A stretch of DNA of 64,000 nt. It comes from an uncultured Planctomycetaceae bacterium (GTDB lineage: Bacteria; Planctomycetota; Phycisphaerae; Sedimentisphaerales; UBA12454). The stretch spans positions 21,949-85,948 of the forward strand of contig CAZBLD010000007.1 of assembly GCA_964492875.1 (NCBI GenBank), read 5' to 3'. The notes below the pieces were generated by a model, which was not told where the DNA came from, made no database searches, and saw only the letters and a list, made by a program, of their open reading frames with translations. Of this stretch, positions 4,697 to 27,949 are shown piece after piece. The position numbers and the translations under genes are program-made. The first letter of the stretch is position 1, and every line of letters begins with the position of its first letter.

Positions 4697-5836
4697 ATGC
4701 TGTATCATCTGTTTTCATTTTTGCAGGATTTTGTAACTCGCTCGCTGGGTTTTTACGCCTGGCAGGAGGTGATGTTCCGTTGCATAATGGCGGCGCTCAC
4801 AAGTCTTTTTGTGGCATGGCTTTCCGGCCCGAAGATAATTCGCTGGCTGATGCGCAAAAAAATAGGCGACCGGCCGGAATTTCATCACGAGACGCTTAAT
4901 GAGCTTAACAAAGAAAAGGCCAATACCCCGACTATGGGTGGTCTGATAATTCTTGCTGCGGTGCTGGTAGGTACTCTGCTATGGGCAAAGCTGAACAATT
5001 CGTTTATCCAAAAAGCGATTATTTTGATATTATGGTTTGGCGGCATAGGAGCGGTTGACGACTGGCTCAAGCTTACAAGTAAAATTCGCCATCGCAGCCG
5101 CAACGGCTTAAAGCCGTGGGAGAAGCTGGCGTTTCAGTTTGGCGGTGCGGTGCTGATAGCGACGTTCCTGTATTTTGATATTAAAAATGTGCCGGATGCA
5201 ACGAGGTTTTGGCTGCCTTTTTACAAGTATGGCATACCCATCACCGGCTGGTTGTTTGTATTGATTGCGATACTTTATATTTCAGCGACGAGCAATGCGG
5301 TCAATTTAACTGATGGTATGGATGGCCTGGCAGCTGGTTGTGTTGCGATAGCAAGTCTGACTCTGGCTATTCTCTGTTATGTTGCTTCTGAGTCGATGAC
5401 GAGGACCTCAACGATGACATGGGCCGGCTATCTGCTTTTGCCGCATATACCGCAGTCCGGCGAGCTTAGTATATTTTTCTCGTCTATTCTCGGCGCTTCG
5501 CTGGGGTTTTTATGGTTTAACTGTCATCCGGCGCAAACGTTTATGGGGGATATTGGCTCGCTTCCGCTGGGCGCTGCGATGGGTTATGGCGCTCTGGTTA
5601 CGAGGAATGAAATCCTGCTTTTGGTAATTGGCGGCGTATTTATGGTTGAGCTCTTCAGTGTGGTTTTGCAAATACTGTATTTCCGCTATACCGGCGGAAA
5701 GAGACTATTCCGCTGTGCGCCGATTCATCATCATTTTCATCTTGCCGGCTGGTCTGAGCCGCAGGTGGTGGTAAGATTCTGGCTTTTGGCCGCCGCCTTT
5801 GCAACATTAGCCCTCGCAACTCTAAAAATCCGCTGA
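4697..5836 (+). CDS. mraY: Phospho-N-acetylmuramoyl-pentapeptide transferase
   Basis: Polytopic membrane protein with NAVNLTDGMDGLA and FMGDIGSLPLG motifs and HHHFHL near the C-terminus. Confidence 0.93.
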   Translation: MLYHLFSFLQDFVTRSLGFYAWQEVMFRCIMAALTSLFVAWLSGPKIIRWLMRKKIGDRPEFHHETLNELNKEKANTPTMGGLIILAAVLVGTLLWAKLNNSFIQKAIILILWFGGIGAVDDWLKLTSKIRHRSRNGLKPWEKLAFQFGGAVLIATFLYFDIKNVPDATRFWLPFYKYGIPITGWLFVLIAILYISATSNAVNLTDGMDGLAAGCVAIASLTLAILCYVASESMTRTSTMTWAGYLLLPHIPQSGELSIFFSSILGASLGFLWFNCHPAQTFMGDIGSLPLGAAMGYGALVTRNEILLLVIGGVFMVELFSVVLQILYFRYTGGKRLFRCAPIHHHFHLAGWSEPQVVVRFWLLAAAFATLALATLKIR

Positions 5837-5997
5837 CAGGTTAGCTGCCGATTTGATATCCTGTAGGTACGGATTATGTTTGACAGCGTTTAACAGTCTG
5901 TCTTTTATTTCCTGTCTTGTCATACTCGACAGTTTAAGTCGGCAATTGAAATTTGTCAATATCTATCATTTTCTACCTCAAAAACACACTTTTCTAC

Positions 5998-6026
5998 TTG
6001 ACAACATCTCGCCAATCGGCTATAAT
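5998..6026 (+). promoter_or_regulatory. Consensus sigma70-type promoter
   Basis: TTGACA (5998-6003), exactly 17 nt spacer, then TATAAT (6021-6026), about 55 nt upstream of the GTG at 6081. Confidence 0.55.
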
Positions 6027-6080
6027 CTATTTAAGAATAGACTGCCTTCAGTTGAGTATGTGTTCTGGAGGGAAAGAACA

Positions 6081-7010
6081 GTGAATCATCCCCGTGTGCT
6101 TATCAGGAACCAGAGTAACGAGATGTTGGAGTGCGAATCTCTGGAAAAGTTCGCCGCTCCCTTTGCCGATGTCTTAATCGTATGCGGTCAGGGGGTGTAT
6201 GAAGATGGGATATACTATGGGGAATTTCATGACAGAGATGTCTGCTTCGAGCATTCTCTCAAGTTTCCAGAAATAGCAGGTCGCTTTCGGTATAACATCA
6301 TAGTTTTGTCAGGCGGCTTCACGCAGGAACGCGCTCCATGGCTTTCAGAGGCTGAAAGCTTCTTGAATATTATGAGGGATGCGGGTGTCGAGATTCCCCC
6401 CGTACCGCTCATTTTGGATGAATATGCACTTGATAGCGCTGAGAACATCCTATTAGGACTTATGACGACCAGGCTCGCGTTGTCGAAAACCCCTATTCGG
6501 CGAGTAGGCATTTGGGTGGCTTGGAAGTTCAAGAAATGGAGGTTCAATAGGAATGCGGAGGCTCTTGGTATCGTTGAGCAAACCTATGTTCATGGCTTTG
6601 CTCACGTCTCGGATACTAACATTCAGGTGCCGATAGACGACGCGAAGCAGAGGGATTATAACGAATATATGCAAGACACTGTAGAACATTATCTGCTGCG
6701 AGCAAGCGACAAAGAGGATGAACGACGAAAGAAATGGCAGAATAACCGAAGCGACAAAGACCGAGACCAGGTCTTTAGTCCTTTTATGCGATTTCCGAAC
6801 GACCCGAAGCGGTGGTTTCGCTCCCTCGACCGAAGTGGAGAGCCTCAAATGGTCTGTGATACAAGACCTTTTTCATTCTACAAAAATCGGTTAGACCTTT
6901 TTGCACCTTTCGTGCAGACATGGCAAAGCTTACACTCAATTGAGAGAGGAGTTAAGTTAGAGGACTCGGGTTTAAAAGATGCGTTTAAAGAGGAAGTAAT
7001 GAAGCTGTGA
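6081..7010 (+). CDS. DUF218/YdcF-like (ElyC/SanA superfamily) protein
   Basis: VLIVCGQG...IIVLSGGFT...SEAESF...LDEYALDSAENIL pattern is typical of DUF218. GTG 6081 is preceded by GGAGGG. ATG 6123 is an alternative start. The track start at 5853 lies upstream of the promoter. Confidence 0.55.
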   Translation: MNHPRVLIRNQSNEMLECESLEKFAAPFADVLIVCGQGVYEDGIYYGEFHDRDVCFEHSLKFPEIAGRFRYNIIVLSGGFTQERAPWLSEAESFLNIMRDAGVEIPPVPLILDEYALDSAENILLGLMTTRLALSKTPIRRVGIWVAWKFKKWRFNRNAEALGIVEQTYVHGFAHVSDTNIQVPIDDAKQRDYNEYMQDTVEHYLLRASDKEDERRKKWQNNRSDKDRDQVFSPFMRFPNDPKRWFRSLDRSGEPQMVCDTRPFSFYKNRLDLFAPFVQTWQSLHSIERGVKLEDSGLKDAFKEEVMKL

Positions 7011-7100
7011 TGGGATGCCGAACATTGGCATCCAGACTCGTAGTTGGCATTGCTGTCCCAGCGGCATACAACGCATTATACATGACGAGTATCTATTTTA

Positions 7101-8411
<1,311 letters not shown>

Positions 8412-11956: not shown

Positions 11957-12878
11957 CAGATCGGAACGTGCCAAGCGAAGCCTTTTGCGAACCGTTCGCA
12001 GACAAAGGCTCAAGTACATTACCGTTCTTCCCTCGCTGGTAACGCTTATCAATGGTGCCTGCGGTTTCGCTGCGATTGTTTTTGCCTCCAGGGCCGGCCA
12101 GGCTGACCTTGATGGTCTTAACGTTTATCATCATCAGTTCCCGTTCTTTTCTATGGCCTGCTATATGATTTTTTTTGCGATGCTTGCCGATATGCTGGAC
12201 GGCCATTTGGCCAGGATTAGTCAGAACACCAGCAGTTTTGGTGGTCAGCTCGACAGTCTTTGTGATGTAATCAGCTTCGGCGTTGCTCCTGCCTTTTTAA
12301 TGTTGCGTGTGGTTGAGAGCAGTGTTACGTTCAGTCCGGCCTTCGATGTTTTTATATATCGTTTTCTCTGGCTCACCGCCGCCATATATATCAGTTGTGC
12401 CGCCATACGTCTTGCAAGGTTCAACGTTGAAAACGAGGAGGATGAGGCGAGCCATATGAATTTCTCGGGTCTTCCGACTCCTGTCGCCGCAGGCGTGATT
12501 ACCAGTCTTATTATTCTCAATCAGGACATTGTCAAAAAAATCGACGTCACCCAGACTTTCTTTTCTTATATGGGGCACAATATTATTATTGCCGTTTTGC
12601 CTTTTGTTGCGCTGGGCGTGTCGGTTCTTATGGTCAGTAGAATTCGTTATCCGCACATCCTGAATCAGTATCTTCACGGCAGAAAGCCTTTTGCATATCT
12701 TATAAGGGCGATAGCTTTTCTTGTGATAATCATTTTCAGTTTTGAAGTTGCCCTTGTTCTGGTCTTCTGTAGTTTTGCCGCAAGCGGCTTTTTGAGATGG
12801 TTTTATTATCGTGTAATTGCTCACAGGGACGCCCCTGGTGAAGCCCAGGAGCCGCCGCTGCTTACGATTTCGCACTGA
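11931..12878 (+). CDS. pssA: CDP-diacylglycerol--serine O-phosphatidyltransferase
   Basis: CDP-alcohol phosphatidyltransferase signature DMLDGHLARISQNTSSFGGQLDSLCDVISFG. Overlaps the psd 3' end. ATG 11940 is an alternative start. Confidence 0.85.
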   Translation: MQNMTELVSRSERAKRSLLRTVRRQRLKYITVLPSLVTLINGACGFAAIVFASRAGQADLDGLNVYHHQFPFFSMACYMIFFAMLADMLDGHLARISQNTSSFGGQLDSLCDVISFGVAPAFLMLRVVESSVTFSPAFDVFIYRFLWLTAAIYISCAAIRLARFNVENEEDEASHMNFSGLPTPVAAGVITSLIILNQDIVKKIDVTQTFFSYMGHNIIIAVLPFVALGVSVLMVSRIRYPHILNQYLHGRKPFAYLIRAIAFLVIIIFSFEVALVLVFCSFAASGFLRWFYYRVIAHRDAPGEAQEPPLLTISH

Positions 12879-12995
12879 TAGCTGAGTTTTGCGTTCTTCT
12901 TTATTTTTCCTTGCCGTTTTCCTTCAAAATATTATCATTGTTAGTTTATCTTTATTTATTCGGGCCGGCATAGCCGACATTAAAAGGGGCATAAC

Positions 12996-13838
12996 TTGAA
13001 GGAAAGCAAAAAACATATTTCGCGTGAGTTAGGTCTTGAAATCGGCCATATTCTCGGCAAAGGCGTGCTCAAACTTGAGCATCTGCATTACGGCCTGTGG
13101 AAAAAGGGCTTGGAGCCGGACCTTCTCAATCTTCACACCGCTCAGGAAGAGTACTGCAGGTTTGTAGTTTCGCACATTCCTGCAGAGGTAAAGTCAATTC
13201 TTGATGTGGGCTGCGGCACAGGTGCATTTTCAAAGCGGCTTATAGATTTGGGTTATAAGGTGGACTGTGTTTGTCCTACTGAGTATCAGAATGAGCTTGT
13301 CGAAGGGCTGCTCGGCGGCAGCAGCGAAATCTTCAAGTGCAAATTTGAGGATATTCAAACCGGCAAAAAATACGATATGGTGATGTTCTGCGAGAGCTTT
13401 CAGTATATCGACCTTGACCGCGTAATTGATATAGCAGCGTCTCTTGTAAGGCAGGGTGGTTTTCTGTTAATCTGTGATTTTTTCAAAAAGCATTCTGCTG
13501 TCCCCGGCGGTCTCAAGGGCGGCCACAAGCTCGACAAATTTATGAATCTTCTCGGACAGTCGCCTTTTAAAATAATTGAGGATATTGATATCACCGAACA
13601 AACCGCTCCGAATATGGACATTTTGGACAGAGCCACAAAAGAGGTAATGATACCGGTTGTCAACGCTGCAGAGCGATTCTTTAAAAGTCGTCATCCGATT
13701 GTTTTGAAGATTTTAAAATGGAGATACAAAAAGAAGATTGAAAAGACCGAGCAAAAGTATCTCAGGGGCAGCCGCACCGGCAAAGACTTTGCAGAACACA
13801 AAACCTACAGACTCTTTGTCTGCCGCAAAGCAAAATAG
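12996..13838 (+). CDS. Class I SAM-dependent methyltransferase
   Basis: Motif I ILDVGCGTGAFSKRL, HYGLW block, DMVMFCESFQY. TTG start per the ORF track. Confidence 0.75.
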   Translation: MKESKKHISRELGLEIGHILGKGVLKLEHLHYGLWKKGLEPDLLNLHTAQEEYCRFVVSHIPAEVKSILDVGCGTGAFSKRLIDLGYKVDCVCPTEYQNELVEGLLGGSSEIFKCKFEDIQTGKKYDMVMFCESFQYIDLDRVIDIAASLVRQGGFLLICDFFKKHSAVPGGLKGGHKLDKFMNLLGQSPFKIIEDIDITEQTAPNMDILDRATKEVMIPVVNAAERFFKSRHPIVLKILKWRYKKKIEKTEQKYLRGSRTGKDFAEHKTYRLFVCRKAK

Positions 13839-13844
13839 AGGAAT

Positions 13845-15593
13845 TTATTCAAATTGAATATCGTTTAAGACAAGCTGGACGGAATTTTGGCCGTAGAAGT
13901 TGTCTATTTGCGGCTCAAAAGCGATACTGAAAAATTCATTTTCCAAAAGCTTTTTTTCCAGATGAGCCATATTAAAGCCGATACATCGTGCATTTGCGCC
14001 GCTGTCGCAGACGGCTAATTGCAGATGTTCGCCGCCCTGGCCTACTCTTCTCGGCGAGGCAATCAATCTTATGCCTCTTGCTGCGAAAGTCGGTGAAGGA
14101 TTGCCTCTTCCGAACGGGCCGAGCATCGCCAGCGATTTTATAAGAGGCACGCTCAAATCCGAAAGTCGGCAGACCGCGTCGATTTCGAGTCTATTGACGA
14201 ATTCGTCGGCGTTCCAGTTTTCAGCGGCATAGTTTTCGAAGGCTGCTGCGAAGCTGCTTATTTTATCGACATCGATTGTCAGTCCTGCCGCCATAGTATG
14301 TCCGCCGAATGAAATTAGTTCGTTGCTGCAGGCGGTAATAGCTTCGAGGATGTCGAATCCTTCGATTGAGCGTGCCGAGCCTTGGGCTTTGTCGTTTGCA
14401 ATGTTGAACAGGATGGCGGGTTTGTAGTATTTATCGACGAGTCTTGATGCGACTATGCCGATTACGCCGGTATGCCAGTCGCTGCTTGCAAGGACGATTG
14501 TCTTCTTGTCGGCTTGGTCGAGGCCGGCGCTGCTTATCATATCGCAGGCATGTTTGTATATTTTCTTTTCGAGCAGTTGTCGTTGTTTGTTCTGCTGTTT
14601 AAGGTATTCTGCAATTCGGATTGCCCTGATATCATTATCGCACGTTAGCAGCTCGACGGCCAGTCTGGCGTGTCCCATTCTGCCGGCTGCGTTGAGCATC
14701 GGCGCAAGGCAGAAGCCTATATGGAAGCTGTCGATTGTCTGGGTTGTGAGATTTGCGGCATTGACTAATGCCTTCATTCCCGGCAGGTTGGACTCGGCGA
14801 AGGCCCGCAGGCCGAAGCTGCTGATGATTCTGTTTTCGCCGCGCATATCGATTACGTCTGCGATTGTGCCCATCGCGGCGAAAATCGTGGCGTTAATCAG
14901 GAATTGCCTGAGATGTTGCGGCGTAGTGCCGCTGCCTTTGAAGCGGTTGATAACAGCCCATGCAAGCTTAAAGGCCACAGTAGAACCGGCACTTAATTGT
15001 GCAGGATAGTTTTCATCAAGGTTCGGATGCACAATCGCAATCGCCTGCGGCAATGAGCCGTCCGGAGATAATCTATGATGGTCTGTGATAATCAGGTCGA
15101 TATTATTAGCTTTGGCAGCCAGTGCCGATTCAAAGGCTGTTATGCCGCAATCGACGCTGATAATCAGTTTTGCGCCTGACTGAGCGATTTGCTCAACCGC
15201 CTCGATATTCAGGCCGTAACCTTCATCTATTCTGTGCGGGATGTAATAATCTACGTCAGCCGCCAGCAACTTAAAAAGTCCCAGCAGAATTGTAACAGCA
15301 GTTATTCCGTCAACGTCATAATCGCCGTAGATGGTGATTTTTTGTTTGTCTTTTATTGCTTTTTCAATTCGCTCGATAGCCGTGCCGATGCCGGGCATCA
15401 ATTCAGGTTCGACAAGTTCATTGAGTTTGGGGTTGAGGAAGTTTTTCGCTTCATCGGGATTTTTGACGCCGCGGTTTATAAGCACCTGTGCAAGCAGGGG
15501 CGGTATTTTCAGTTCGTTCGCCAGTTGCCCCGCCAAACTGTCAGCGGGTAAAATGTGCCATTGTTTCTTTTGCATCCTTGCCGCCAGACGCAT
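13845..15593 (-). CDS. recJ: Single-stranded-DNA-specific exonuclease RecJ
   Basis: DHH motifs (YGDYDVDGIT, DCGI, ITDHH) and the DHHA1 block GGHTMAAGL. Confidence 0.9.
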   Translation of the reverse strand: MRLAARMQKKQWHILPADSLAGQLANELKIPPLLAQVLINRGVKNPDEAKNFLNPKLNELVEPELMPGIGTAIERIEKAIKDKQKITIYGDYDVDGITAVTILLGLFKLLAADVDYYIPHRIDEGYGLNIEAVEQIAQSGAKLIISVDCGITAFESALAAKANNIDLIITDHHRLSPDGSLPQAIAIVHPNLDENYPAQLSAGSTVAFKLAWAVINRFKGSGTTPQHLRQFLINATIFAAMGTIADVIDMRGENRIISSFGLRAFAESNLPGMKALVNAANLTTQTIDSFHIGFCLAPMLNAAGRMGHARLAVELLTCDNDIRAIRIAEYLKQQNKQRQLLEKKIYKHACDMISSAGLDQADKKTIVLASSDWHTGVIGIVASRLVDKYYKPAILFNIANDKAQGSARSIEGFDILEAITACSNELISFGGHTMAAGLTIDVDKISSFAAAFENYAAENWNADEFVNRLEIDAVCRLSDLSVPLIKSLAMLGPFGRGNPSPTFAARGIRLIASPRRVGQGGEHLQLAVCDSGANARCIGFNMAHLEKKLLENEFFSIAFEPQIDNFYGQNSVQLVLNDIQFE

Positions 15594-16871: not shown

Positions 16872-16924
16872 AAATCTTTGTGTCTTTGTCCTTAGGACTC
16901 CTAACGGAGTGTCTTCGTGGCTAA
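16872..16924 (+). repeat. Dispersed element AAATCTTTGTGTCTTTGTCCTTAGGACTCCTAACGGAGTG-CTT-GTGGCTAA, copy 1
   Basis: Near-identical copy at 17764-17807. Its core recurs in reverse orientation at 23792-23821 and 32163-32190. Short versions occur at 43199-43230 and 46607-46672. Confidence 0.85.
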
Positions 16925-17047
16925 TTTTCGTACGCTTGCAGGCAAAAGGCAAGACAATTCTATCCGCCGTAGCCTTGGCGAAGGAGGATTTTACGCAATA
17001 TGATAGTTTGTTTTGCGCAAGCCTGTCCTGAGATACTAATTTTGAAT

Positions 17048-17632
17048 TTATTCAAAATTAAGCGCTGCGAACCTCCCTCTGTACTTCTTTGCCGCTTCAT
17101 CGTATGCCCTTGCTGCCTCTTCCTCGCTGTCGAAATAGCCTAAATGTTTTGGTTTTAAGTCGGTATGGATATACGCACGCCATTTCCCGCGTTTTTCATC
17201 CCTGCAGACTCCTCTGTATTTTGACCCGCTTGGCCTTCCTCTTTTTGTGCAGTTTAGCGCGTTTTGTCTATGGTCAGCGAATTGCAGATTAGCTTTTCTG
17301 TTATCAAGGCCGTTGCGGTTTTTATGGTCAACGATAGTTCCCGCCGTTGCCTGCATTATTTCCCTGTGCATATATATAATCTTCCATTTCCCGTCTTCCA
17401 GCAGCATCCGCCACGCATAACAGGTATTTTTGCATTCTTTAAGCAGCCACTCGCACCGGCAGAGTTGCGCATAATCTTCAGGGTCAACTATTGCGTACTG
17501 TCCGCCGACAAGTCTGATTTTACGAAACGCAAATCCATATTGTTTCCGCCGGTACCAAAGCAGTATCGCCGCGCCGATGGTTTCTAACCAATTCGGAACA
17601 GCAATAGGAATATGAAGATGATGTATTTTCAT
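17048..17632 (-). CDS. HNH endonuclease fused to an AP2 DNA-binding domain
   Basis: HNH_3-like IVDHKNRNGLDNRKANLQFADHRQN, followed by the AP2 block SKYRGVCRDEKRGKWRAYI...LGYFDSEEEAARAYDEAAKKYRG. Confidence 0.8.
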   Translation of the reverse strand: MKIHHLHIPIAVPNWLETIGAAILLWYRRKQYGFAFRKIRLVGGQYAIVDPEDYAQLCRCEWLLKECKNTCYAWRMLLEDGKWKIIYMHREIMQATAGTIVDHKNRNGLDNRKANLQFADHRQNALNCTKRGRPSGSKYRGVCRDEKRGKWRAYIHTDLKPKHLGYFDSEEEAARAYDEAAKKYRGRFAALNFE

Positions 17633-17701: not shown

Positions 17702-17757
17702 TTGAATTTTGGTTATTCGAATTTGTTTAGGATTTAGAAATTAGGATTTAGGATTTT
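17702..17757 (+). repeat. TTGAA...TTTAGGATTTAG low-complexity element, copy 1
   Basis: Related copies at 17952-18015 and 25433-25466, and a reverse-complement-like copy at about 23430-23465. Confidence 0.7.
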
Positions 17758-17763
17758 TCTTTC

Positions 17764-17807
17764 TGTCTTTGTCCTTAGGACTCCTAACGGAGTGCCTTTG
17801 TGGCTAA
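17764..17807 (+). repeat. Dispersed GTCCTTAGGACTCCTAACGGAG element, copy 2
   Basis: Direct repeat of 16881-16924, in the same orientation, on the other side of the HNH-AP2 gene. Confidence 0.85.
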
Positions 17808-17951
17808 ATTTATTCACTTTTCACTTAATAATACCGGTATTTTACCATATTTACAACAAAAAGTCAAGGAAAATCCGCTTTTTTTACTTAAAAAAGTGGT
17901 TTTTCTTTCACCGTTTCACGCTTGTCCTGAACAATGTTGAAGGGGCGGGTT

Positions 17952-18015
17952 TTGAACTTTTGGTAATTGGTATTTAGGATTTGTTTAGAATTTAGGATTT
18001 AGTGCTTAGGATTTT
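17952..18015 (+). repeat. TTGAA...TTTAGGATTTAG low-complexity element, copy 2
   Basis: Aligns by eye with 17702-17757. Confidence 0.7.
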
Positions 18016-18062
18016 CTTCTCTCTACTCTCGATTTTCGATTATCTCGCCCTTGGCGCGGTTT

Positions 18063-18242: not shown

Positions 18243-19337
18243 TTAATCTATATCTGCGTTAACAAGTTTTTCCGGCAAACCAAGATGTTCTTTAATCTCT
18301 TTCTGTCTCAGACCGTCTACAAAATCACCTATTTTACCAAAGTCAAGTTGCCACATTTCTCGTACACCTGTACTGTACTTGTCGGCAAAAAACCCCTGTA
18401 CTGTCGGGTACTCGATATGTATATCATCGTGGATTGAACGGAGTAAGTAGCTTCCAATTGTCTGCATTTTGCTTCCGGTAGGTGCAAGAATTATACGATG
18501 AGTACCTGAAAATTTCCAATATAAACTAGTAAGAAGTTCATAAGTTTCATTATAGTAAAGGGTGCTAGTTACTTTGATGGGATTGTTATCATCTTCGATA
18601 GTCCATTCTCGGCGCAAAAACTGATGAACATAGGCTGTAGCCTCTTCTCGCCATTTTAATTCTCCTCGTGGTGGACGGCCATTGATAAGTATGAAACGTG
18701 ATGGCTTGATAACATTAACTAAAGCCTGGCATAAAGCTTCATTGAAAGAGTCAAAGGCTATTAGCAATGTTGCCTGATTTTGCATTCGAATACTTGAGAG
18801 TCTGGAAACATGCAGCACATCGTAAACACCGGTATGTATGAAAGATGTAGGTAAATGTTGCTCTTCTTTTGATTTTGCTGTCTCAAACTGGGCTTGGCTT
18901 GGCGCGTATTCACAAGCTTCAGCATACACTATACGTAATGGCAAATTCAATTCGCGTACTACGTCAAGGATAATCATAATTGCCAGTCTTGACATGCCGG
19001 ATATATCAAGGCATACCGCCTTGGCTTGAGAATTAATCAGAATATCCTTAAAACAAATATCAAAGTCAAAAGGTAAATGCAAATTGTATTCCACAGGCAC
19101 AACCTTGCAACCTTTCTTATTTAGTAAAGACATAATCTCTTCAAATCTATTTTCTGGTTTATAGGGCAAGTAGTTCAGAAGTACCGCAATATTGTTGGTT
19201 GAGCTGGAAAATTCGAGAATTTCAGAAAACTTGCATGCGCGTTCCTCAAATCCTCCTGCTGCCACAAATAATTCATCATTATGAAGCACAAGTTTATCGA
19301 TAGATGTGAGTTTAGGTATGATCATGGCTACTTTCAT
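18243..19337 (-). CDS. Hypothetical protein, third gene of the MTase/kinase-ATPase operon, with possible Rossmann/CARF-like motifs
   Basis: Long AT-rich ORF whose start (ATG 19337 or 19325, TTG 19340) overlaps the stop of the upstream gene (19312). Motifs AAGGFEERA, LDISGMSRL and APTGSKMQ. No family recognised. Confidence 0.7.
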   Translation of the reverse strand: MKVAMIIPKLTSIDKLVLHNDELFVAAGGFEERACKFSEILEFSSSTNNIAVLLNYLPYKPENRFEEIMSLLNKKGCKVVPVEYNLHLPFDFDICFKDILINSQAKAVCLDISGMSRLAIMIILDVVRELNLPLRIVYAEACEYAPSQAQFETAKSKEEQHLPTSFIHTGVYDVLHVSRLSSIRMQNQATLLIAFDSFNEALCQALVNVIKPSRFILINGRPPRGELKWREEATAYVHQFLRREWTIEDDNNPIKVTSTLYYNETYELLTSLYWKFSGTHRIILAPTGSKMQTIGSYLLRSIHDDIHIEYPTVQGFFADKYSTGVREMWQLDFGKIGDFVDGLRQKEIKEHLGLPEKLVNADID

Positions 19338-21840
19338 CAAACAATCTCATTTGTTTAGTGTTAAACCGCTCTCTATCTTTTTTCCACTTTTGGGCAAAAT
19401 CTGCTGGGTTTAAAAGTAAATCCCTAAAATCTACTGCTTTCATAAAAATGCTATCAATTTTGGAAAATGTCAATGTACAAAACGGAATAAGTAATCGCCG
19501 TAAATATAGTCTGGGAATTATAGCCCCTCTAATACTTTTTCCTCTGTCATCCCTCAGGAACACTCCATAACGTACAAGATCTTCATATATTTCCCTACAG
19601 ACACCTTCCAAGGAAAACTTATCTACTATTTCTATTCGAAAAGCCTGTTTAGGTTCATTCTGTCGATCTTTTCTGCCGCTATTCAGTTTTCGTAAATCAT
19701 ATAAACTAACTTCCTTAAAAGCTTCAGCAATCTTAACCAAATGTTCACCCCATGAAACTATATGGCGAGGAAGGGGAGTTTTACCATCTCTTGCTGTTCT
19801 GGCACAGGCTTTAAGAAAATGCAGAAATTCCCCTCCTGCACGCCTGAATTCCTTGTTTTGTATATCTGGTTGTATTGGAAGATTCAAAGGTTGTTTATCT
19901 GGAATTTGTTCCAAGAGATTCTGAGCAAGTTTAACCATTGATCTTGTGTCTCCAGACCACATGCTCACAAAAACTTCTCGACCATAATAAAGAACCTGAG
20001 GTTTTGGTTTTTGTATAGGTTGCAAGTCATCATTCTCCGGCCCTACCTCTTTCCGAATTCCTCTTGCAAGTTCTGCCCAGGATTTATCAAATCTGCCAAG
20101 CACCTCAATGAGATTTTTGCCTTGAAACTTGTCTTCTCTTGCGAGACGACGACAAAACACATCATCAAGAAATGTTTCGCGTTTTTCGTCTGGCAAATCG
20201 ATTGTTACAGAACCTAAATCTGTAAGTTCAAAGTCGTGAGGCTCATCGAGGACCTTTTTAGTATAATCTTCGCGATATAAAGTTGAAGGTGATTCTGTGG
20301 AAATTTTGAAGAAAAAACAATCTGATCTTTGAAAAATAACCGAATTGAGAATTTTCTGAAGTGATTTGCCAACCTTGGGAAGAGAATAGTCATCAAGAAA
20401 AAAATATAATGGTCTATCGCCTATCCAAGGTACTATTTGCTGCAATTTTGGAACAAAACGTTTAAGCCAATCATTTTGCGCCATTTCCGAAAGACAAGAG
20501 ATGGGCTCTTTTGCATTTCGTACTCTGTCTTTAGCAGTCTCTACTAACGAGGCTGCAACCTGCATTTCAAGCCTGGGGCCTGGATATAAAGTCTTAGGAT
20601 CAATTTTCGTGATAATCAAATTAAATAACTGACGGTTTGATTCATCAAGTACAGTTTGTTGTCCATCCGCACCTTTTTCTCTGGCAGTTGATGCAATCCG
20701 TATAATCTCTGACAACAGCGAAAGATGAAAAAACTGAATTATACGCATAGCAAGGTTTTTATCTGGCGACTTCTCTTGGTCAAACAGAAACGCATCAGCA
20801 ATATCGTTCATATTAAGATATATGCCAACCAACTCTCCTGCCGCACCATCATCTACAGGACCAACCTCAAGAGTAAGAAGCTTTGAAAGACGTCTGAATA
20901 CCATTGTTTTGCCACAACCTCTTGTTCCAGTCAAGACCGTGATATTTCGACTGACGATATCTTCGTAGCCGGGAAAACTTGAAACAAAAAGTTCTTTCCA
21001 TTCTTTCCATCTATTCCCTAATTGTTCGCCTACCAAATAGTCACCAAATCTGGAATGACCCATTTGTGTAATTTGTGGCATGCTTGTTCGTTGACGTATA
21101 CGAATCAATTCCCCTACTATATTTTCAACGACATTTTTTTCATCCCCTCTTTCCAATGGCGATTGCTCTCTGAGACTCTTTATGGCAGATCCGCCGCAAA
21201 TTTCATCATAAAAAAATCTATCACCTTGCGTTAATTGTTCTCGAGTAATTGACTGAAGCATCAATGTGGTTATCAGGCCAATTTGCTCTATATCTTTTTT
21301 AGGTTGTAATATAGCCCCAGTATCACCCATCCCAAAATCTGTTATCATAACCTCGTATGCACGAGGACCTCCCATCTCAGGTTTTCTCAGAATAATATTT
21401 CCCGGATGTAAGTCTCCATGCTGTAAGTTCTTTTTTTGCAGACAATCTCGACGAAAAAATAATAAGTTTTCCAATATGTGTTGAACGTCGCTGATGGTTA
21501 ACTTGCGATTTATAACATGTTCTTTAAGTGTTTGGCCTTCGATGAAATCAAAGACCATCACAGCATAATCTTTATACCAAAAAAGTCCATGAAATCTTAC
21601 GGTGTTTGGTTGCTGTTCAAGTTGATGCGCTTTGAGAGCTTCTTGTTCCCAACCATGTTTTAATTTGTTTTGAGATATAAATTTTAAAGCTCGCTCACGC
21701 CCGTATTGATTTTTAGCTTTAAAAACATGCGCTCTTTTTCCACTTCCAATATAACTTATTATCTCGTATTCGTATTCTTTGTCCTTGTTAACTGTATTAC
21801 CTACTAAATCTTTTAATTGGTCTGGTAGAGAAAGAGTCAT
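19312..21840 (-). CDS. Fusion protein: Ser/Thr-type protein kinase core (aa about 24-200) plus P-loop NTPase (aa about 295-520) plus uncharacterised C-terminal region
   Basis: Kinase: G-loop IGSGKRAHVF, ALK (K53), HGDLHPGNIIL (D143), ITDFG (168-170). NTPase: Walker A GTRGCGKT (305-312), Walker B-like LYFFLDD (478-484). Confidence 0.85.
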   Translation of the reverse strand: MTLSLPDQLKDLVGNTVNKDKEYEYEIISYIGSGKRAHVFKAKNQYGRERALKFISQNKLKHGWEQEALKAHQLEQQPNTVRFHGLFWYKDYAVMVFDFIEGQTLKEHVINRKLTISDVQHILENLLFFRRDCLQKKNLQHGDLHPGNIILRKPEMGGPRAYEVMITDFGMGDTGAILQPKKDIEQIGLITTLMLQSITREQLTQGDRFFYDEICGGSAIKSLREQSPLERGDEKNVVENIVGELIRIRQRTSMPQITQMGHSRFGDYLVGEQLGNRWKEWKELFVSSFPGYEDIVSRNITVLTGTRGCGKTMVFRRLSKLLTLEVGPVDDGAAGELVGIYLNMNDIADAFLFDQEKSPDKNLAMRIIQFFHLSLLSEIIRIASTAREKGADGQQTVLDESNRQLFNLIITKIDPKTLYPGPRLEMQVAASLVETAKDRVRNAKEPISCLSEMAQNDWLKRFVPKLQQIVPWIGDRPLYFFLDDYSLPKVGKSLQKILNSVIFQRSDCFFFKISTESPSTLYREDYTKKVLDEPHDFELTDLGSVTIDLPDEKRETFLDDVFCRRLAREDKFQGKNLIEVLGRFDKSWAELARGIRKEVGPENDDLQPIQKPKPQVLYYGREVFVSMWSGDTRSMVKLAQNLLEQIPDKQPLNLPIQPDIQNKEFRRAGGEFLHFLKACARTARDGKTPLPRHIVSWGEHLVKIAEAFKEVSLYDLRKLNSGRKDRQNEPKQAFRIEIVDKFSLEGVCREIYEDLVRYGVFLRDDRGKSIRGAIIPRLYLRRLLIPFCTLTFSKIDSIFMKAVDFRDLLLNPADFAQKWKKDRERFNTKQMRLFDESSHDHT

Positions 21841-21844
21841 GACA

Positions 21845-22957
21845 TTAACTCTTCTTTCGTAGCACTATAATAGTTTCTTCACGAGTTGAATGGCAGTTGA
21901 CTCGTGCGCGGCGAATGTCAGGAATAGCATTTTTGCATATAGCAGTGGGTTTTAAATAACAATCTTTGCGTGAAGTAATTCTCAATATTTCTTCCGGTAA
22001 ACGATGATACTTACCATTTCGACGTACTGCTCCCAACACAAGAATACACACACCATTCCGCACTAAAAGCTTTGACCATATATCCATCAATGCTTCCATC
22101 ATATTTAGAAATTGTGTCTTGTGTGGCGAAAGCACAGGTTCCAATATTGTGTGATCCTTAATTCCTAAGAACCATAGTCTCAAACGATTATCACGAGCAT
22201 AAGAAAGCGAATTCATATATGGCGGACTTGTTATAATAGCTGAAACCTTCTGACAAACCAACTTTGAGTCTGGCTTCATTGCGTCCGACTGTACAACATT
22301 CCTAATCAATTGCCGATCCACCTCAGACGTTCTTTTGTAAGCACGGCGTACTTTAGCAAGCAATCGTGGATACACCGCTCTATAAGCATATAGTTCAGGG
22401 TATTTTGTACGTGGATAAAGCTTATCTTTCAAATATGGAACTGTATGGGAGGATGGATATGACAAAAAACCTGGTCTCCAATGATGAAGTATTCCGAGCA
22501 GACAGCTGAGCAAAAAATATTGACGGTGACGTAGCATAACATTTCTAATTGCAAGAGTATCCCGAAGAGTCTCCGGTTGGAAAAAATTGCGTACCCACTC
22601 TGGAATTTTTCTGAGATCAATCGTTTTACGTTCTTTAGTTGCTTCTTGCCAACATTCATTGAGTCTATTCTCGGCATCTTTAAAATTTTTAGGAGGATTC
22701 ATTTTGGCTTTTGAAAGCACATAAGCATAAGGACTGAGATCTCCTGCAAACACGTGTCTCTTGGTAAGCCATCCTTCTAATGCTATCGTTCCTGCTCCCG
22801 AGAAGGGATCGTATATGGTATCCCCCGGCTCAGTAAACTGTGTGATTAAACTTCTGGCCATTGAGGATTTCATCCTACCAATGTATGGAGACAGTTGGTG
22901 CCAGCTACATTCTGAATTAAGAGTACCTTTTCTCCAATCAATCCGTATTTTATCCAT
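21845..22957 (-). CDS. DNA methyltransferase (N6-adenine or N4-cytosine type)
   Basis: SAM-binding DPFSGAGT (aa 50-57) and catalytic TSPPY (aa 243-247). Its stop lies 4 nt from the next gene's ATG. Confidence 0.85.
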   Translation of the reverse strand: MDKIRIDWRKGTLNSECSWHQLSPYIGRMKSSMARSLITQFTEPGDTIYDPFSGAGTIALEGWLTKRHVFAGDLSPYAYVLSKAKMNPPKNFKDAENRLNECWQEATKERKTIDLRKIPEWVRNFFQPETLRDTLAIRNVMLRHRQYFLLSCLLGILHHWRPGFLSYPSSHTVPYLKDKLYPRTKYPELYAYRAVYPRLLAKVRRAYKRTSEVDRQLIRNVVQSDAMKPDSKLVCQKVSAIITSPPYMNSLSYARDNRLRLWFLGIKDHTILEPVLSPHKTQFLNMMEALMDIWSKLLVRNGVCILVLGAVRRNGKYHRLPEEILRITSRKDCYLKPTAICKNAIPDIRRARVNCHSTREETIIVLRKKS

Positions 22958-23004
22958 TTCAGCATCTTATTTTTGAATATACTTTGGTTCAGACGTAGTG
23001 AGAA

Positions 23005-23032
23005 ATTATACTATTCGTAAGTTAACAGGCAA
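23005..23032 (-). promoter_or_regulatory. Candidate sigma70-type promoter of the three-gene operon
   Basis: On the minus strand, TTGCCT (23032-23027), 16-nt spacer, TATAAT (23010-23005), about 45 nt upstream of the ATG at 22957. Confidence 0.35.
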
Positions 23033-23478
23033 GCCATTTCCCAGTGAAGCCGGTTCATAAAATCTTCATTCTTCAATTTTGCGACAGTAGTTCTCCGCTT
23101 CGCAAAAACGCGCAAGCACAAGTTGCGCAAATTCATCGAAAACTTGCCAAAAACTCAAAAAAACCCCTCATTTTTTTTAATTTCCGTGTAATCTGTGTAA
23201 TCTGTGGTTAATTTCCACCCCATTTTTACCCCCTTTTTTGAAGTTTACCCGCCACCGGCGGTCGGTTAGCCCTGCCAACGAAGTTTACCCTCGCGCAGTG
23301 CCTGCCCTCGAGTAGTCGGGGGCGGGGGGCAGGGTTTTCATTGCGACCCCTTAGGCCGTAGCAATCCGTCGTAAGGCGTCCCGAGCGAAGTAATGTCACC
23401 CCTGCGCAGGCAGGGGCGAGGGTTCTATTTAAATTTCTAATCTGCAATCTCAAATCCCGAATTTCTCCCTCACCTTGA

Positions 23479-23492
23479 TTGATAATTATCAA
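23479..23492. promoter_or_regulatory. Perfect 14-bp palindrome TTGATAATTATCAA (operator-like), copy 1
   Basis: Self-complementary. An identical copy lies at 23696-23709 within a duplicated block. Confidence 0.3.
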
Positions 23493-23695
23493 GTATCGAT
23501 TTTCAGCCCCAAAAACTCATAAAAACAGTGTAAATCTGCGAAATCTGCGGTTAAAAACAGCAACTTTAACTTGTCCGCCTATGGCGGACGGCAACGCCGT
23601 CTCCGCCCCCCGCCGCTTCTCAATTTTTAACTTTTCACTTTTGGCTTTGAGCTTTTAGCTTTAACTTTTAAACTCTTGTCTCTCCCTCACCTTGA

Positions 23696-23709
23696 TTGAT
23701 AATTATCAA
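23696..23709. promoter_or_regulatory. Perfect 14-bp palindrome TTGATAATTATCAA (operator-like), copy 2
   Basis: Identical to 23479-23492. Confidence 0.3.
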
Positions 23710-24082
23710 CTACCGATTTTCAGCACAAAAACTTGTAAAAACCTGTAAAAAGTCGTCAAAAAATTGTAATTTGTGTCAATTCGTGTTCATTCTCCGTAAG
23801 GAGTCCCAAGGACGTGGTTAATTAAAATCAATTTAATCTGCGTAATCTGTGATTAAAAGTACCCTCATTTTTAGCGTAATCCGCTGGGGGATGCCTGACG
23901 GCATTTTTAAAACTCTTGTCCGTTCGACTTGTCCGCTCGTAGCCTTGGCGGAGACGGAAGCCTTAGCGACCTGTCCTCCGTAGTCCATCTTGGTGGACGA
24001 AGGATGGAAGACGGATGCCCGCTTTTGACGAATTTTTTATCTCCTCAAATTACCTAAAAATCGTTTATCCCGCACCTACTTG

Positions 24083-24137
24083 CCCCGTTAGATGCGTTAG
24101 TTAGCTGCTTGGGGACACTTTAGCTATCTAACCGGGG
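24083..24137. repeat. CCCCG-TAGAT...ATCTA-CGGGG hairpin-family element
   Basis: CCCCGTTAGAT (24083-24093) pairs with ATCTAACCGGGG (24126-24137). Same family as 33069-33103 and 53039-53115. Confidence 0.6.
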
Positions 24138-24405
24138 TTTGCTATTCAATCGTTTACTTGGTGCGGGGTCAATCCCGCACCAAACTTATTATTCTTTACT
24201 CGGTGCGGGGTTCATAACTCCTTATTTTTCATTGCCGGTTTTTACCTGTTCTACTATTCACTGTTCACTATTCACTGTCCCCCTTTTTCTACTTCCCCTG
24301 ATTTGCCTTTCAGTCTTTTATTTCGTATATATTTATATGGAGTCGATTAAAGAAGGCCGAGGGGCCTATAAGTATTTAATTTGGGGGGGTTTAAGGAGTT
24401 TTTTT

Positions 24406-24726
24406 ATGGGTTGGAGAAGCAAATTCATATTTTTGTTGATTGTTTATTTCGCGGGTTTTGCGACCGCGATTTACTATCTTGCTCCTTCTGATAGGGGCCA
24501 GTGCCAGGCCGCCAGTTTCTTAAGTAGTTTAGACAGCGGTTCGCAGGGCAATGCAAGTGCTTTATGTAAAGGGTATTACGACAAGGCCTATGCGAAGGCT
24601 TCTGAGAGTTTTTCTCAGGTAGATTGGCAGGATTTGAAGGAAAGGTTTAATCGTGGCCTGCAGAAGCTGATGGAAATGGCTAATAAAAACAGCCAGAATG
24701 CAGCTGAAGGAGCTGAAGATAAGTAA
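24406..24726 (+). CDS. Small membrane-anchored protein (106 aa), function unknown
   Basis: ATG 24406 is preceded by AAGGAG at a 7-nt spacing. One N-terminal TM (FIFLLIVYFAGFATAIYYL) followed by a hydrophilic tail. The track's upstream extension runs through repeat DNA. Confidence 0.45.
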   Translation: MGWRSKFIFLLIVYFAGFATAIYYLAPSDRGQCQAASFLSSLDSGSQGNASALCKGYYDKAYAKASESFSQVDWQDLKERFNRGLQKLMEMANKNSQNAAEGAEDK

Positions 24727-25080
24727 CGCATCCACCGAGGGATAGGGATAGGTCTCTTTGCTGGAGCTTGTGGAGTTGAGCTGTTTTTGGGGGGGTGTTT
24801 ACTATAGAATATCAGAAAATAGGACTTGACAAAACTGTAAAGATAGAGGTAAAATAACAGGTTAGATAAAATTTGGAATAGCTGAAGGGCTGGCAAAGGA
24901 AGTCTTAGCGCGTGCCTTTGCAGAAAGTGGTAGATGCGCATGAGCGACACTTTATTGCCTGAGGGACTGTTAGCCTGCCTGACAGAACCGATTGAAATTC
25001 GGTGCTGTGCTCGTGTGCATTGATATATAGACGGGCAAAGAGTATCCGTAAAGGTACAAAGGGTTTTAATTTTTCATAGT

Positions 25081-25108
25081 GGCTGACCGAAAGTGGGCAG
25101 CCTTTTTT
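25081..25108 (+). terminator. Rho-independent terminator-like hairpin
   Basis: GGCTGACC (25081-25088) pairs with GGGCAGCC (25095-25102) with one mismatch, followed by TTTTTT (25103-25108). Confidence 0.4.
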
Positions 25109-25199
25109 ATTGAGTTGTCCAGCTGTCTCTTTACTCCTTTCTCATTTGTCGGCAGCGAAAATATGTCGTTTGCCATGAACACGCGAAAGCGATACATCC

Positions 25200-25409
25200 G
25201 GAACCCGGTGGTTTGCTGCCCAAAAACTCAAGGAGCTTGTGGAAAGACGACGGCTGAATTATAATCACAGACGGCAGCATAGTTCGCCTGGCTGTATGAC
25301 CGCCGGCGTGTTTCCGCTGCGATGTAATTCTTCGGCTTCGCTTATGGCTCAGCCTCAGGAATACGGAACGGGAAAGATGGATAGTTCTCTAATTCAGAGT
25401 GGTACATAA
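25200..25409 (+). pseudogene. C-terminal relic of an IS3-like (rve/DDE integrase) transposase
   Basis: Translation ...TRWFAAQKLKELVERRRLNYNHRRQHSSPGCMTAGVF...LIQSGT* matches the conserved ...W...YN..RPHSSLGY.TP..F tail of rve-domain transposases. The upstream frame is broken by a stop (about 25170). Confidence 0.6.
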
Positions 25410-25432
25410 AGCGGCATCAAGGCAGACTGTTT

Positions 25433-25466
25433 TGAAGATTCAGATTTAGGATTTCGGATTTTTTCT
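25433..25466 (+). repeat. TTGAA...TTTAGGATTT element, copy 3
   Basis: GTTTTGAAGATTCAGATTTAGGATTTCGGATTTTTTC resembles 17702-17757 and 17952-18015. Confidence 0.55.
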
Positions 25467-25494
25467 TTTTTATTGGATATTACTGTAGGTTCAA

Positions 25495-27873: not shown

Positions 27874-27949
27874 CGGGGTGTAGCTCAGCTTGGATTAGAG
27901 CGCTTGGTTCGGGACCAAGAGGCCGCTGGTTCAAATCCAGTCACCCCGA
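27874..27949 (+). tRNA. tRNA-Pro (anticodon CGG)
   Basis: Manual cloverleaf. Acceptor arm CGGGGTG pairs with CACCCCG (C1:G72, as in bacterial tRNA-Pro). D arm GCTC/GAGC. Anticodon stem CTTGG/CCAAG with loop TTCGGGA. T arm GCTGG-TTCAAAT-CCAGT. Discriminator A. No encoded CCA. Confidence 0.9.

Follow-up and report, generated by a model that had tools for sequence, protein, structure and literature searches.

The locus and its three genes

The stretch of DNA analysed here, 64,000 nucleotides from contig CAZBLD010000007.1 of an uncultured Planctomycetaceae bacterium (assembly GCA_964492875.1, positions 21,949 to 85,948), is called the window throughout, and it carries a compact minus-strand operon at 18243-22957. 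The three genes of the operon encode a putative DNA methyltransferase (P1), a kinase-ATPase fusion protein (P2) and a CARF-like protein (P3), which we propose to read together as a candidate methylation-linked defence cassette. Their coordinates and tight packing are as an earlier note on this DNA had described them: the TAA stop codon of P1 is followed after 4 nt (tgtc) by the ATG of P2 at 21840, and the ATG of P3 at 19337 overlaps the stop codon of P2 (19312) by 26 nt. Translated from this ATG, P3 is identical to a public protein of 364 amino acids (P0121). The promoter proposed in that note is the top-scoring promoter-like site of the region (10 of 12), but sites of this class are no commoner there than in shuffled controls (22 versus 15.6 +/- 4.4), so that the evidence for a promoter is weak. 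The features of the operon are collected in Table 1.

Table 1. Features of the operon, in window coordinates.
Feature	Coordinates	Strand	Basis and remarks
Methyltransferase gene P1	21845-22957	minus	Open reading frame, 370 aa
Kinase-ATPase gene P2	19312-21840	minus	Open reading frame, 842 aa
Third gene P3	18243-19337	minus	364 aa from ATG 19337 (365 aa from TTG 19340)
P2 kinase domain	21076-21798	minus	About residues 15-255; Pkinase, AlphaFold2 fold
P2 ORC/Cdc6-like AAA+/STAND-type ATPase	20092-20994	minus	Residues 283-583; PF24389
P2 C-terminal region	19315-20091	minus	Residues 584-842, about 260 aa, no family match
P3 N-terminal Rossmann-like lobe	18843-19310	minus	About residues 10-165; AlphaFold2 secondary structure
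P3 C-terminal Rossmann-like lobe	18333-18842	minus	About residues 166-335; AlphaFold2 and conservation
Candidate sigma-70-type promoter TTGCCT-16-TATAAT	23005-23032	minus	48 nt upstream of the P1 ATG

The methyltransferase

P1 carries a motif I, DPFSGAGT (residues 50-57), and a motif IV, TSPPY (residues 243-247), and it was on these that the call of a DNA methyltransferase had originally been made. The call stands, as both motifs are invariant in 29 homologs (D50, P51, G54 and G56 of DPFxGxGT, and S244-P-P-Y247), which also share an invariant block specific to the family, G155..H158-H159-x-R-x-G-F-L-S-x-P-x-S-H171. The protein matches the Pfam families N6_N4_Mtase and UPF0020 and the PADLOC model MTase_II (1.6e-21), and a search of the Protein Data Bank (PDB) with its profile returns 2zie, the N4-cytosine methyltransferases 8s9n/8s9m, DpnA, MboIIA, RsrI and CcrM. 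Motif I of P1 aligns to the C-terminal part and motif IV to the N-terminal part of beta-class N4-cytosine/N6-adenine methyltransferases; because the order of the two motifs is swapped, P1 appears to be a circularly permuted relative of this class.

We therefore predict that P1 is an exocyclic-amino DNA methyltransferase of the restriction-modification (R-M) type. SPPY is most typical of enzymes that make N4-methylcytosine, and the sequence suggests this product, N6-methyladenine also being possible. P1 has the S-adenosylmethionine-binding motif together with the (S/D/N)PPY motif that are asked of a type II R-M methyltransferase; searches of P2 and P3 against Pfam, PADLOC and NCBIfam turned up no nuclease family, and no cognate endonuclease accompanies it in the operon. 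None of the three proteins reaches a curated cut-off of NCBIfam. In the NCBI record of this contig P1 is called with 338 amino acids, from a start that lies too far downstream, since W8, H20, Q21, P24, Y25 and G27 are conserved before it; the start at 22957, which gives 370 amino acids, is the correct one.

The kinase-ATPase

P2 has at least 247 full-length homologs, and its conservation was read from an alignment of 25 of them (33-85% identity). Its best PADLOC match, CARF6--CARF_STK_AAA (7e-21), runs from residue 93 to residue 674 and so covers both the kinase and the ATPase. The kinase part is recognised by Pfam as Pkinase (2.5e-14, 53.7 bits, cut-off 31.7, residues 25-172), and K53, E67, H141-G-D143-L-H145, N148 and D168-F-G are invariant, so that it has the catalytic lysine, the glutamate of helix alphaC, the HxD...N loop and the DFG motif of the eukaryote-like kinase fold. 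In the AlphaFold2 (AF2) model it has the full bilobal kinase fold, which Foldseek aligns to eukaryote-like kinases over 260-290 columns at a probability of 1.00. The catalytic loop reads HGDLHxGN and not HRDLKxxN; this, the matches to Pfam ABC1 and APH and the label 'Bud32' on homologs place the domain near the atypical kinases. From the sequence, its substrate is likely but not certain to be protein. Among the defence models of PADLOC the kinase domain also matches mad6 (1.4e-17), PD-T4-6 and PglW.

The second domain is an ORC/Cdc6-like ATPase by Pfam (PF24389, 2.9e-27, 96.1 bits, cut-off 27). In its Walker A motif, G305-T-R307-G-C-G-K311-T, the residues G305, R307, G308, G310, K311 and T312 are invariant, as is the Walker B pair D483-D484. 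The kinase core and the Walker motifs had been thought intact, and the invariance of K53, D143 and K311 bears this out: with their catalytic residues and both Walker motifs preserved, the kinase and the ATPase look active. Invariant positions in the C-terminal region make up a basic motif, D764-x-R766-G-K-S769 ... P776-R-L ... R782, and the region is modelled by AF2 at moderate confidence as a mixture of helices and strands; that it might bind DNA is something we can only infer. A sequence search of the PDB with the ATPase and the C-terminal part brought up no relatives, and in Foldseek searches with the full P2 model the matches are dominated by kinase domains and do not inform on the ATPase or the C-terminus.

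The CARF-like protein

The third protein, which had at first seemed to fit no family, can be placed. It matches eleven CARF6 models of PADLOC, the best being CARF6--CARF_CARF_CARF (1.6e-15, residues 14-333); the window protein has no match in Pfam or NCBIfam. Its AF2 model, built on a 47-sequence alignment, is of high quality (predicted local distance difference test score, pLDDT, 89.7; predicted template-modelling score, pTM, 0.91) and consists of two Rossmann-like lobes and a C-terminal helix. Foldseek aligns it locally, at a probability of 1.00, to the CARF domain of Cam1 in complex with cyclic tetra- or hexaadenylate (cA4/cA6; 8t65, 8t66) and to Thermus thermophilus Csm6 (5fsh, 8jbb), and at 0.98 to Actinomyces procaprae Csm6 with cA6 (9w3v), with further matches to Cad1.

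In the N-terminal lobe, a G29-F-E-x-R33 motif follows strand 1, and D111-I-S113-G-M-S-R117, which follows a core strand, has the form of the CARF signature [DN]X[ST]XXX[RK] as defined by Makarova et al. 2014 (PMC4012209); all 47 homologs have D111, and the conservation of S113 among them is 90% or higher. The C-terminal lobe has invariant motifs of its own, N219-G-R-P-P223, P286-x-G-S-K290 and D305-x-H307-x-E309-Y-P, and shows no significant sequence similarity to the N-terminal one (hhalign E 0.27). A search of PDB sequences with the P3 profile gave a best E of 0.35, and no match at or below 1e-3 was found in a library of viral structures. Pfam HFX_2341_N weakly matches 15 of the 47 homologs; HFX_2341 itself regulates transcription in haloarchaea, where it represses the cas genes.

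Among 1.84 billion representative proteins the P3 profile has 1035 relatives, of which 603 match at 1e-10 or better; nearly all of the relatives are stand-alone proteins of about 350 amino acids. The rare fusions join the domain to HisKA and HATPase_c (P0275), to TIR (P0292), to a calcineurin-like metallophosphoesterase (P0316) or to an unassigned region of 380 amino acids (P0298), and such interchangeable fused outputs are the pattern of a sensor domain. P3 thus combines the Rossmann-like alpha/beta fold (with a six-stranded core in that superfamily), the signature and the curated profile match by which members of the CARF superfamily are recognised, and the model points to a stand-alone, tandem CARF-like protein resembling a nucleotide sensor.

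Conservation and mobility of the unit

A scan of one genome per GTDB species gave 47 loci, in whose six-frame open reading frames the three window proteins were then located with phmmer. The loci are spread patchily over at least 13 phyla; one of the carriers is an archaeon, Methanoperedens, and the cultured carriers include Flagellimonas taeanensis JCM 17757 (L017) and Bradyrhizobium sp. Oc8 (L013). They occur in Planctomycetota, Acidobacteriota, Bacteroidota, Verrucomicrobiota/Kiritimatiellota, Nitrospirota and Gemmatimonadota as well as in Alpha- and Betaproteobacteria, Desulfobacterota, Clostridiales, Spirochaetota, Patescibacteria and Desantisbacteria. In 45 of the 47 loci the kinase-ATPase gene is followed immediately by the CARF gene, which starts between -35 and +75 nt from the stop codon of the former; the other two are a contig of 1.8 kb (L039) and a locus that has the N-terminal half of the kinase-ATPase only (L006). 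A methyltransferase gene is found within 8 kb in 42 loci, that is, in 42 of the 43 for which the flank is available, and in 32 of the 47 it shares the strand of the kinase-ATPase gene and stops no more than 100 nt before that gene starts. The median gaps are 1.5 nt between methyltransferase and kinase-ATPase (n=34) and 4 nt between kinase-ATPase and CARF gene (n=45). In six loci (L010, L019, L025, L029, L036 and L037) the methyltransferase is displaced, divergent or missing. No further widely conserved partner came out when the genes flanking the 47 loci were clustered all against all, the thymidylate synthase ThyX being the only conserved fourth family. The earlier note had asked for conserved co-occurrence of the three genes, and in these loci they are indeed syntenic, as one conserved operon.

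Some loci are broken. In a metagenome-assembled genome of a planctomycete (PPR_0503), the kinase-ATPase gene is split on a single scaffold of 5.97 Mb: the methyltransferase gene and the N-terminal half are found near 1.67 Mb (L006), the C-terminal half and the CARF gene near 5.39 Mb (L007), which reflects either a rearrangement or a misassembly. Two further loci, L037 and L047, have interrupted or truncated kinase-ATPase genes.

The whole cassette is also present on a 26-kb contig predicted to be viral (IMG/VR UViG 3300035696_002290, L061:4703-9748), which may represent a copy carried by a prophage or an island wrongly classed as viral. The synteny in 47 loci and the copy on this contig speak strongly for one functional unit that moves horizontally. 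The composition of the operon in the window agrees with such an origin. Its G+C content is 38.7% against 45.6% in the remaining window, where the lowest segment of equal size has 42.6% (standard deviation 1.6%), and the G+C content at third codon positions (GC3) is 29-33% in its three genes against 47.6 +/- 4% in 25 other genes of the window. The low G+C that had been remarked on before is thus correct in direction, although the contrast had been exaggerated by spot counts of single lines; as an outlier in both measures, the operon is supported as horizontally acquired. In the flanks of some related loci there are PglZ, BrxL, DrmMI, type I R-M, type IIG, PD-Lambda-4 and PDC-S02 genes, integrases and transposases, and the defence genes among them are suggestive of a defence context.

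The methyltransferase family in other cassettes

The P1 family is far larger than those of its partners, with 3895 matches versus about 250 for the P2 and P3 families, and it is also found outside the cassette. Five such homologs (L050, L053, L055, L057 and L059), 48-51% identical, were sampled. In each the methyltransferase gene lies at 6001-7160 of its locus and heads a cassette; none of the five has a kinase-ATPase neighbour, and all five are in other compact cassettes. In three of them the next gene encodes a protein with a GmrSD_N/DUF262 domain, followed by a small open reading frame, and this partner matches NsnA (4e-38), PD-T4-2_A (3e-19) and REase_II (8.5e-18) in PADLOC. In the other two a ParB_N protein comes next and then an unplaced protein of 470-547 amino acids; the ParB_N protein of L050 and its unplaced companion have no PADLOC match, and the pairing of methyltransferase and ParB_N may represent one more R-M-like system that is as yet undescribed. 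The sampled methyltransferases nest among the kinase-linked ones in a crude neighbour-joining tree.

These cassettes resemble the operon of the window in that the same methyltransferase family comes first in a tight operon of two or three genes; their partners are unrelated to P2 and P3 and resemble known restriction or nucleoside triphosphatase modules. Because the P1 family pairs elsewhere with DUF262 or ParB_N partners, P2 and P3 would occupy the 'restriction' slot of the cassette, and the combination of one modification module with interchangeable 'restriction' modules supports a role for P1 in marking the cell's own DNA.

Proposed function

We consider it probable, by no means sure, that the operon is a methylation-linked defence cassette, and we hold the details of its function with less confidence than this general assignment. 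What we propose for its role in defence, for methylation as the sign of self, for the targets of the kinase, for what P3 binds and for which way regulation runs is all inferred, by analogy with PglW and type 2 of the bacteriophage exclusion (BREX) systems, with the methylation-associated defence system MADS, with the kinases of PD-T4-6 and Stk2 and with CARF effectors. On this reading the cassette would be a mobile, nuclease-free, R-M-like immune unit in which P1 methylates the host DNA and so marks the genome as self. P2 would be both sensor-switch and effector: its ATPase and basic C-terminal region would engage unmodified foreign DNA or another cue of infection, the binding and hydrolysis of ATP would bring about switching or oligomerisation and thereby turn on the N-terminal kinase, and the kinase would phosphorylate targets of the phage or the host, so that the infection or the cell is stopped. 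P3, as a single-chain tandem CARF protein, would bind a ligand of nucleotide type and gate P2 allosterically.

The same proteins might instead work by signalling or abortive infection alone. P3 would then sense a messenger made in trans, by a type III CRISPR system or by cyclic-oligonucleotide-based antiphage signalling (CBASS), or a phage nucleotide, and activate P2, while the methyltransferase would be no self mark at all and would be a regulatory or epigenetic passenger, a target or an effector. Kinase signalling was proposed for a related fused family in PMC4012209 without methylation being invoked; P3 does have the fold and signature of a CARF sensor and relatives fused to TIR and histidine kinase domains, and the six loci with a displaced, divergent or missing methyltransferase point the same way. 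Yet wherever the flank is available the methyltransferase is there in all but one locus, usually translationally coupled; no cyclase is conserved near the 47 loci or present in the window; and a methyltransferase family that elsewhere partners restriction-type DUF262 modules is expected to have a functional modification role. We regard the signalling explanation as unlikely.

Linkage to thymidylate synthases

In ten loci (L011, L013, L015, L025, L027, L029, L030, L032, L036 and L041) a gene for ThyX (Pfam Thy1, 8e-50) directly follows the CARF gene, for example at L013:10741-11664. These loci are mostly from Acidobacteriota, with one from Gemmatimonadota and one from Bradyrhizobium; their kinase-ATPases have about 900-930 amino acids (up to 1012 in the gene call of L027), and the linked ThyX has a conserved C-terminal extension of about 90 amino acids. 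In L015 and L027 the methyltransferase gene comes after thyX, which is thereby enclosed in a four-gene variant of the operon, and in L029 thyX is convergent. A canonical ThyA gene, convergent and directly after the CARF gene, is found in three more loci (L018:6066-7463, L028:11790-12584 and L044). In L044 there are thyA sequences at 5444-5857 and 12613-13864, fragments that bracket the cassette, and since both L018 and L044 carry thyA fragments nearby, this looks like integration at thyA. The window contains no thymidylate synthase, and about 33 of the 47 loci have none adjacent.

This linkage keeps open a connection to nucleotide metabolism, for example through what the CARF protein binds or what the kinase acts on. 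Taken further, it could mean that the operon is no immune system and controls nucleotide or DNA modification or DNA metabolism, as a hypermodification pathway or a regulator of thymidylate supply; the kinase fold would phosphorylate a derivative of a nucleotide or DNA base, P3 would bind or process a pyrimidine nucleotide, and P1, with ThyX where present, would modify nucleotides or DNA. The ThyX linkage in ten loci, with the gene between those for CARF and methyltransferase in L015 and L027, fits such a role, and so do the three ThyA genes after the CARF gene, dCTP-deaminase-like genes in two loci, the atypical HGDLHxGN loop with its ABC1 and APH matches, and the invariant polar residues of P3. 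It is countered by the majority of loci that have no adjacent thymidylate synthase, the window among them, and by the flanking thyA fragments, which suggest for the ThyA cases integration at thyA and not a shared function; the patchy spread, the low G+C, the neighbouring integrases, transposases and defence genes and the sharing of the methyltransferase with DUF262 cassettes all favour a system of genetic conflict. The chances of a purely metabolic role seem to us poor.

A mobile cassette organised like an R-M system could, furthermore, be a selfish addiction module in which the methyltransferase is the antidote and the kinase-ATPase, with P3, the toxin, acting by post-segregational killing with phage protection as an incidental effect; where ThyX lies in the operon (ten loci), a gene of essential type is linked to the cassette. 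Against this stand the disrupted or split kinase-ATPase genes beside intact neighbours in L006/L007, L037 and L047; nor does simple addiction need the regulatory input of a CARF protein. We take addiction as the principal function to be very unlikely, noting that addiction and defence are not mutually exclusive and may coexist.

Weighing the defence reading

Several observations count against the defence cassette as we have drawn it. The cassette contains no nuclease or other obvious killing domain. The HGDLHxGN loop of P2 resembles those of RIO, Bud32, ABC1 and APH-type kinases, whose likeness leaves room for a substrate that is not protein. The global template-modelling scores of P3 against solved CARF proteins are low (0.2-0.35), and its invariant polar residues D305, H307, E309 and K290 make catalysis possible in place of sensing. 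No signal synthase (Cas10, CD-NTase or mCpol) was matched among the 40 other proteins of the window, nor is one conserved across the 47 loci, so that a CARF ligand would be without a known source. A plain R-M-like model gives no account of the linkage to ThyX or ThyA in 13 loci. The enrichment of defence genes in the flanks of the related loci is modest and comes from a descriptive census, and the picture of a defence islet drawn in the earlier note is weak for the window itself, which has no other clear defence genes.

The defence reading can nevertheless be carried one step further, if only tentatively, to a counterpart of R-M that has no restriction enzyme. The ORC/Cdc6-like ATPase would read the methylation of incoming DNA and pass the result on as kinase signalling, and the CARF gate, which would do without a cyclase, would sense a nucleotide of the host or phage; the recurrent linkage to ThyX and ThyA makes a metabolite of the pyrimidine or thymidylate pathway one candidate. 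This fuller picture is rather doubtful, but were it true, CARF signalling would operate outside CRISPR and CBASS, and an epigenetic mark and the sensing of a metabolite would be joined in one phosphorylation response, as a form of immunity with a new logic.

If functional, the operon would be a compact and portable immune system that has reached over a dozen phyla and that needs no nuclease to restrict invaders, its output being a kinase and its regulator a CARF sensor without a cognate cyclase. It would bring together the epigenetic self-marking of R-M, BREX and MADS, the ATPase switches of STAND/ORC type and the nucleotide sensing of CARF proteins. At about 4.7 kb it could serve as a tractable model for how systems of the BREX/Pgl type stop phages without cutting DNA and for what CARF proteins sense outside CRISPR. 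The methyltransferase family may also yield new specificities, and its pairing with DUF262, ParB and kinase partners shows how 'restriction' slots are exchanged.

Surroundings of the operon

The remaining window consists of housekeeping genes, among them recJ and priA (judged from their translations) and a tRNA-Pro. The tRNA-Pro(CGG) gene, at 27874-27949 directly after priA, is the sole RNA gene detected in the window with Rfam. Searched against PADLOC, the 40 other window proteins gave weak generic matches only, with no Cas10, CD-NTase or PglZ among them.

Adjoining the operon, at 17048-17632, is a gene with HNH_3 and AP2 domains by Pfam, in agreement with the earlier note. It is flanked by 54-nt direct repeats that are 93% identical (16875-16928 and 17758-17811), and its protein falls into a 90%-identity cluster of 13 member sequences from many different contigs. 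It looks like a small mobile unit of homing-endonuclease type, independent of the operon. On the other side, some 2.5 kb between the operon and priA (22958-25494) are sparsely coding and contain dispersed repeats, including a 71-nt repeat with copies at 23464-23534 and 23681-23751; a 195-aa open reading frame at 24139-24726 has no assigned function. Repeats of the AGGATTT type occur between the operon and priA and also at 17733-18028 and 25431-25468. Of the flanking features claimed earlier, the repeats are thus present, as short dispersed ones, and the relic of an insertion sequence is not recognisable: the repeat search found no insertion-sequence remnant, and around the operon it found neither inverted repeats nor target-site duplications.

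Comparison with known systems

The earlier note held that the operon fits none of R-M, BREX, DISARM and Dnd, and this judgement is right and extends to MADS. BREX, the DUF499 systems related to BREX, MADS, DISARM and Dnd/Ssp were all considered and rejected, as their defining components are missing. With type 2 BREX, or Pgl, the operon has some features in common. Both are linked to methylation and free of nucleases, and PglW, like P2, has a kinase followed by an ORC/Cdc6-like STAND domain in one polypeptide. The ATPase of PglW, however, is described as inactive, whereas the Walker motifs of P2 are intact; PglX has about 1200 amino acids, against the 370 of the permuted beta-like methyltransferase here; and P2 has a CARF partner. 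P2 scores 24.6 bits with the NCBIfam model BREX_PglW, whose cut-off is 990, P1 matches PADLOC PglX at 1.4e-4, and PADLOC detects none of PglZ, PglY/BrxC, BrxA, BrxB, BrxD and BrxHI in the operon or the remaining window. With MADS (mad1-8), the detection of which requires MAD6, MAD7 and MAD8 (bioRxiv 10.1101/2023.03.30.534895), the operon shares the mad6 match of its kinase and a weak match of P1 to mad2; P2 reaches 43.9 bits with MAD6 against a cut-off of 460, over the N-lobe of the kinase only, and neither the operon nor the window has a match to mad7 or mad8.

With the effectors of type III CRISPR and CBASS (Csm6, Cam1, Cad1, Can1 and SAVED) P3 shares the sensor fold and the signature. Can1 has two CARF domains and SAVED is made of two CARF-like domains (PMC9704534), an arrangement that the two lobes of P3 recall. 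P3, by contrast, has no effector fused to it and no link to CRISPR, neither the operon nor the window encodes Cas10 or a CD-NTase, and the partner is a kinase-ATPase.

The closest relative is a family catalogued by Makarova et al. 2014 (PMC4012209), in which a Zn ribbon, a Ser-Thr-Tyr kinase, an AAA+ ATPase, a CARF domain and a winged helix-turn-helix (wHTH) domain are fused, with an arginine inside the P-loop as the hallmark and kinase-mediated signal transduction as the proposed function. The order of kinase, P-loop-arginine ATPase (R307 in P2) and CARF is the same here. In place of the fused CARF domain there is a separate gene for a two-lobe CARF protein, with no recognisable wHTH and no Zn ribbon detected, and a dedicated methyltransferase, of which the accessible text of the 2014 paper makes no mention for that family, is strictly linked. 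The PADLOC model CARF_STK_AAA, with 1187 positions, has about the size of P2 and P3 together, and the existence of the fusion elsewhere argues in the manner of a Rosetta stone that P2 and P3 work together. We found no experimental study of the fused family in the literature.

The earlier description of the operon as an undescribed system is therefore true in part: the combination of kinase-ATPase and CARF is already in PADLOC and in PMC4012209, while a literature search of incomplete coverage found no paper that describes a system of methyltransferase, kinase-ATPase and CARF protein. Judged by their sequences, the genes of the window are a split form of the catalogued kinase-AAA+/CARF module. 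What is new here is its coupling to a methyltransferase, the strict and wide synteny of the three genes, the sharing of the methyltransferase family with other cassettes and the subclade that carries ThyX.

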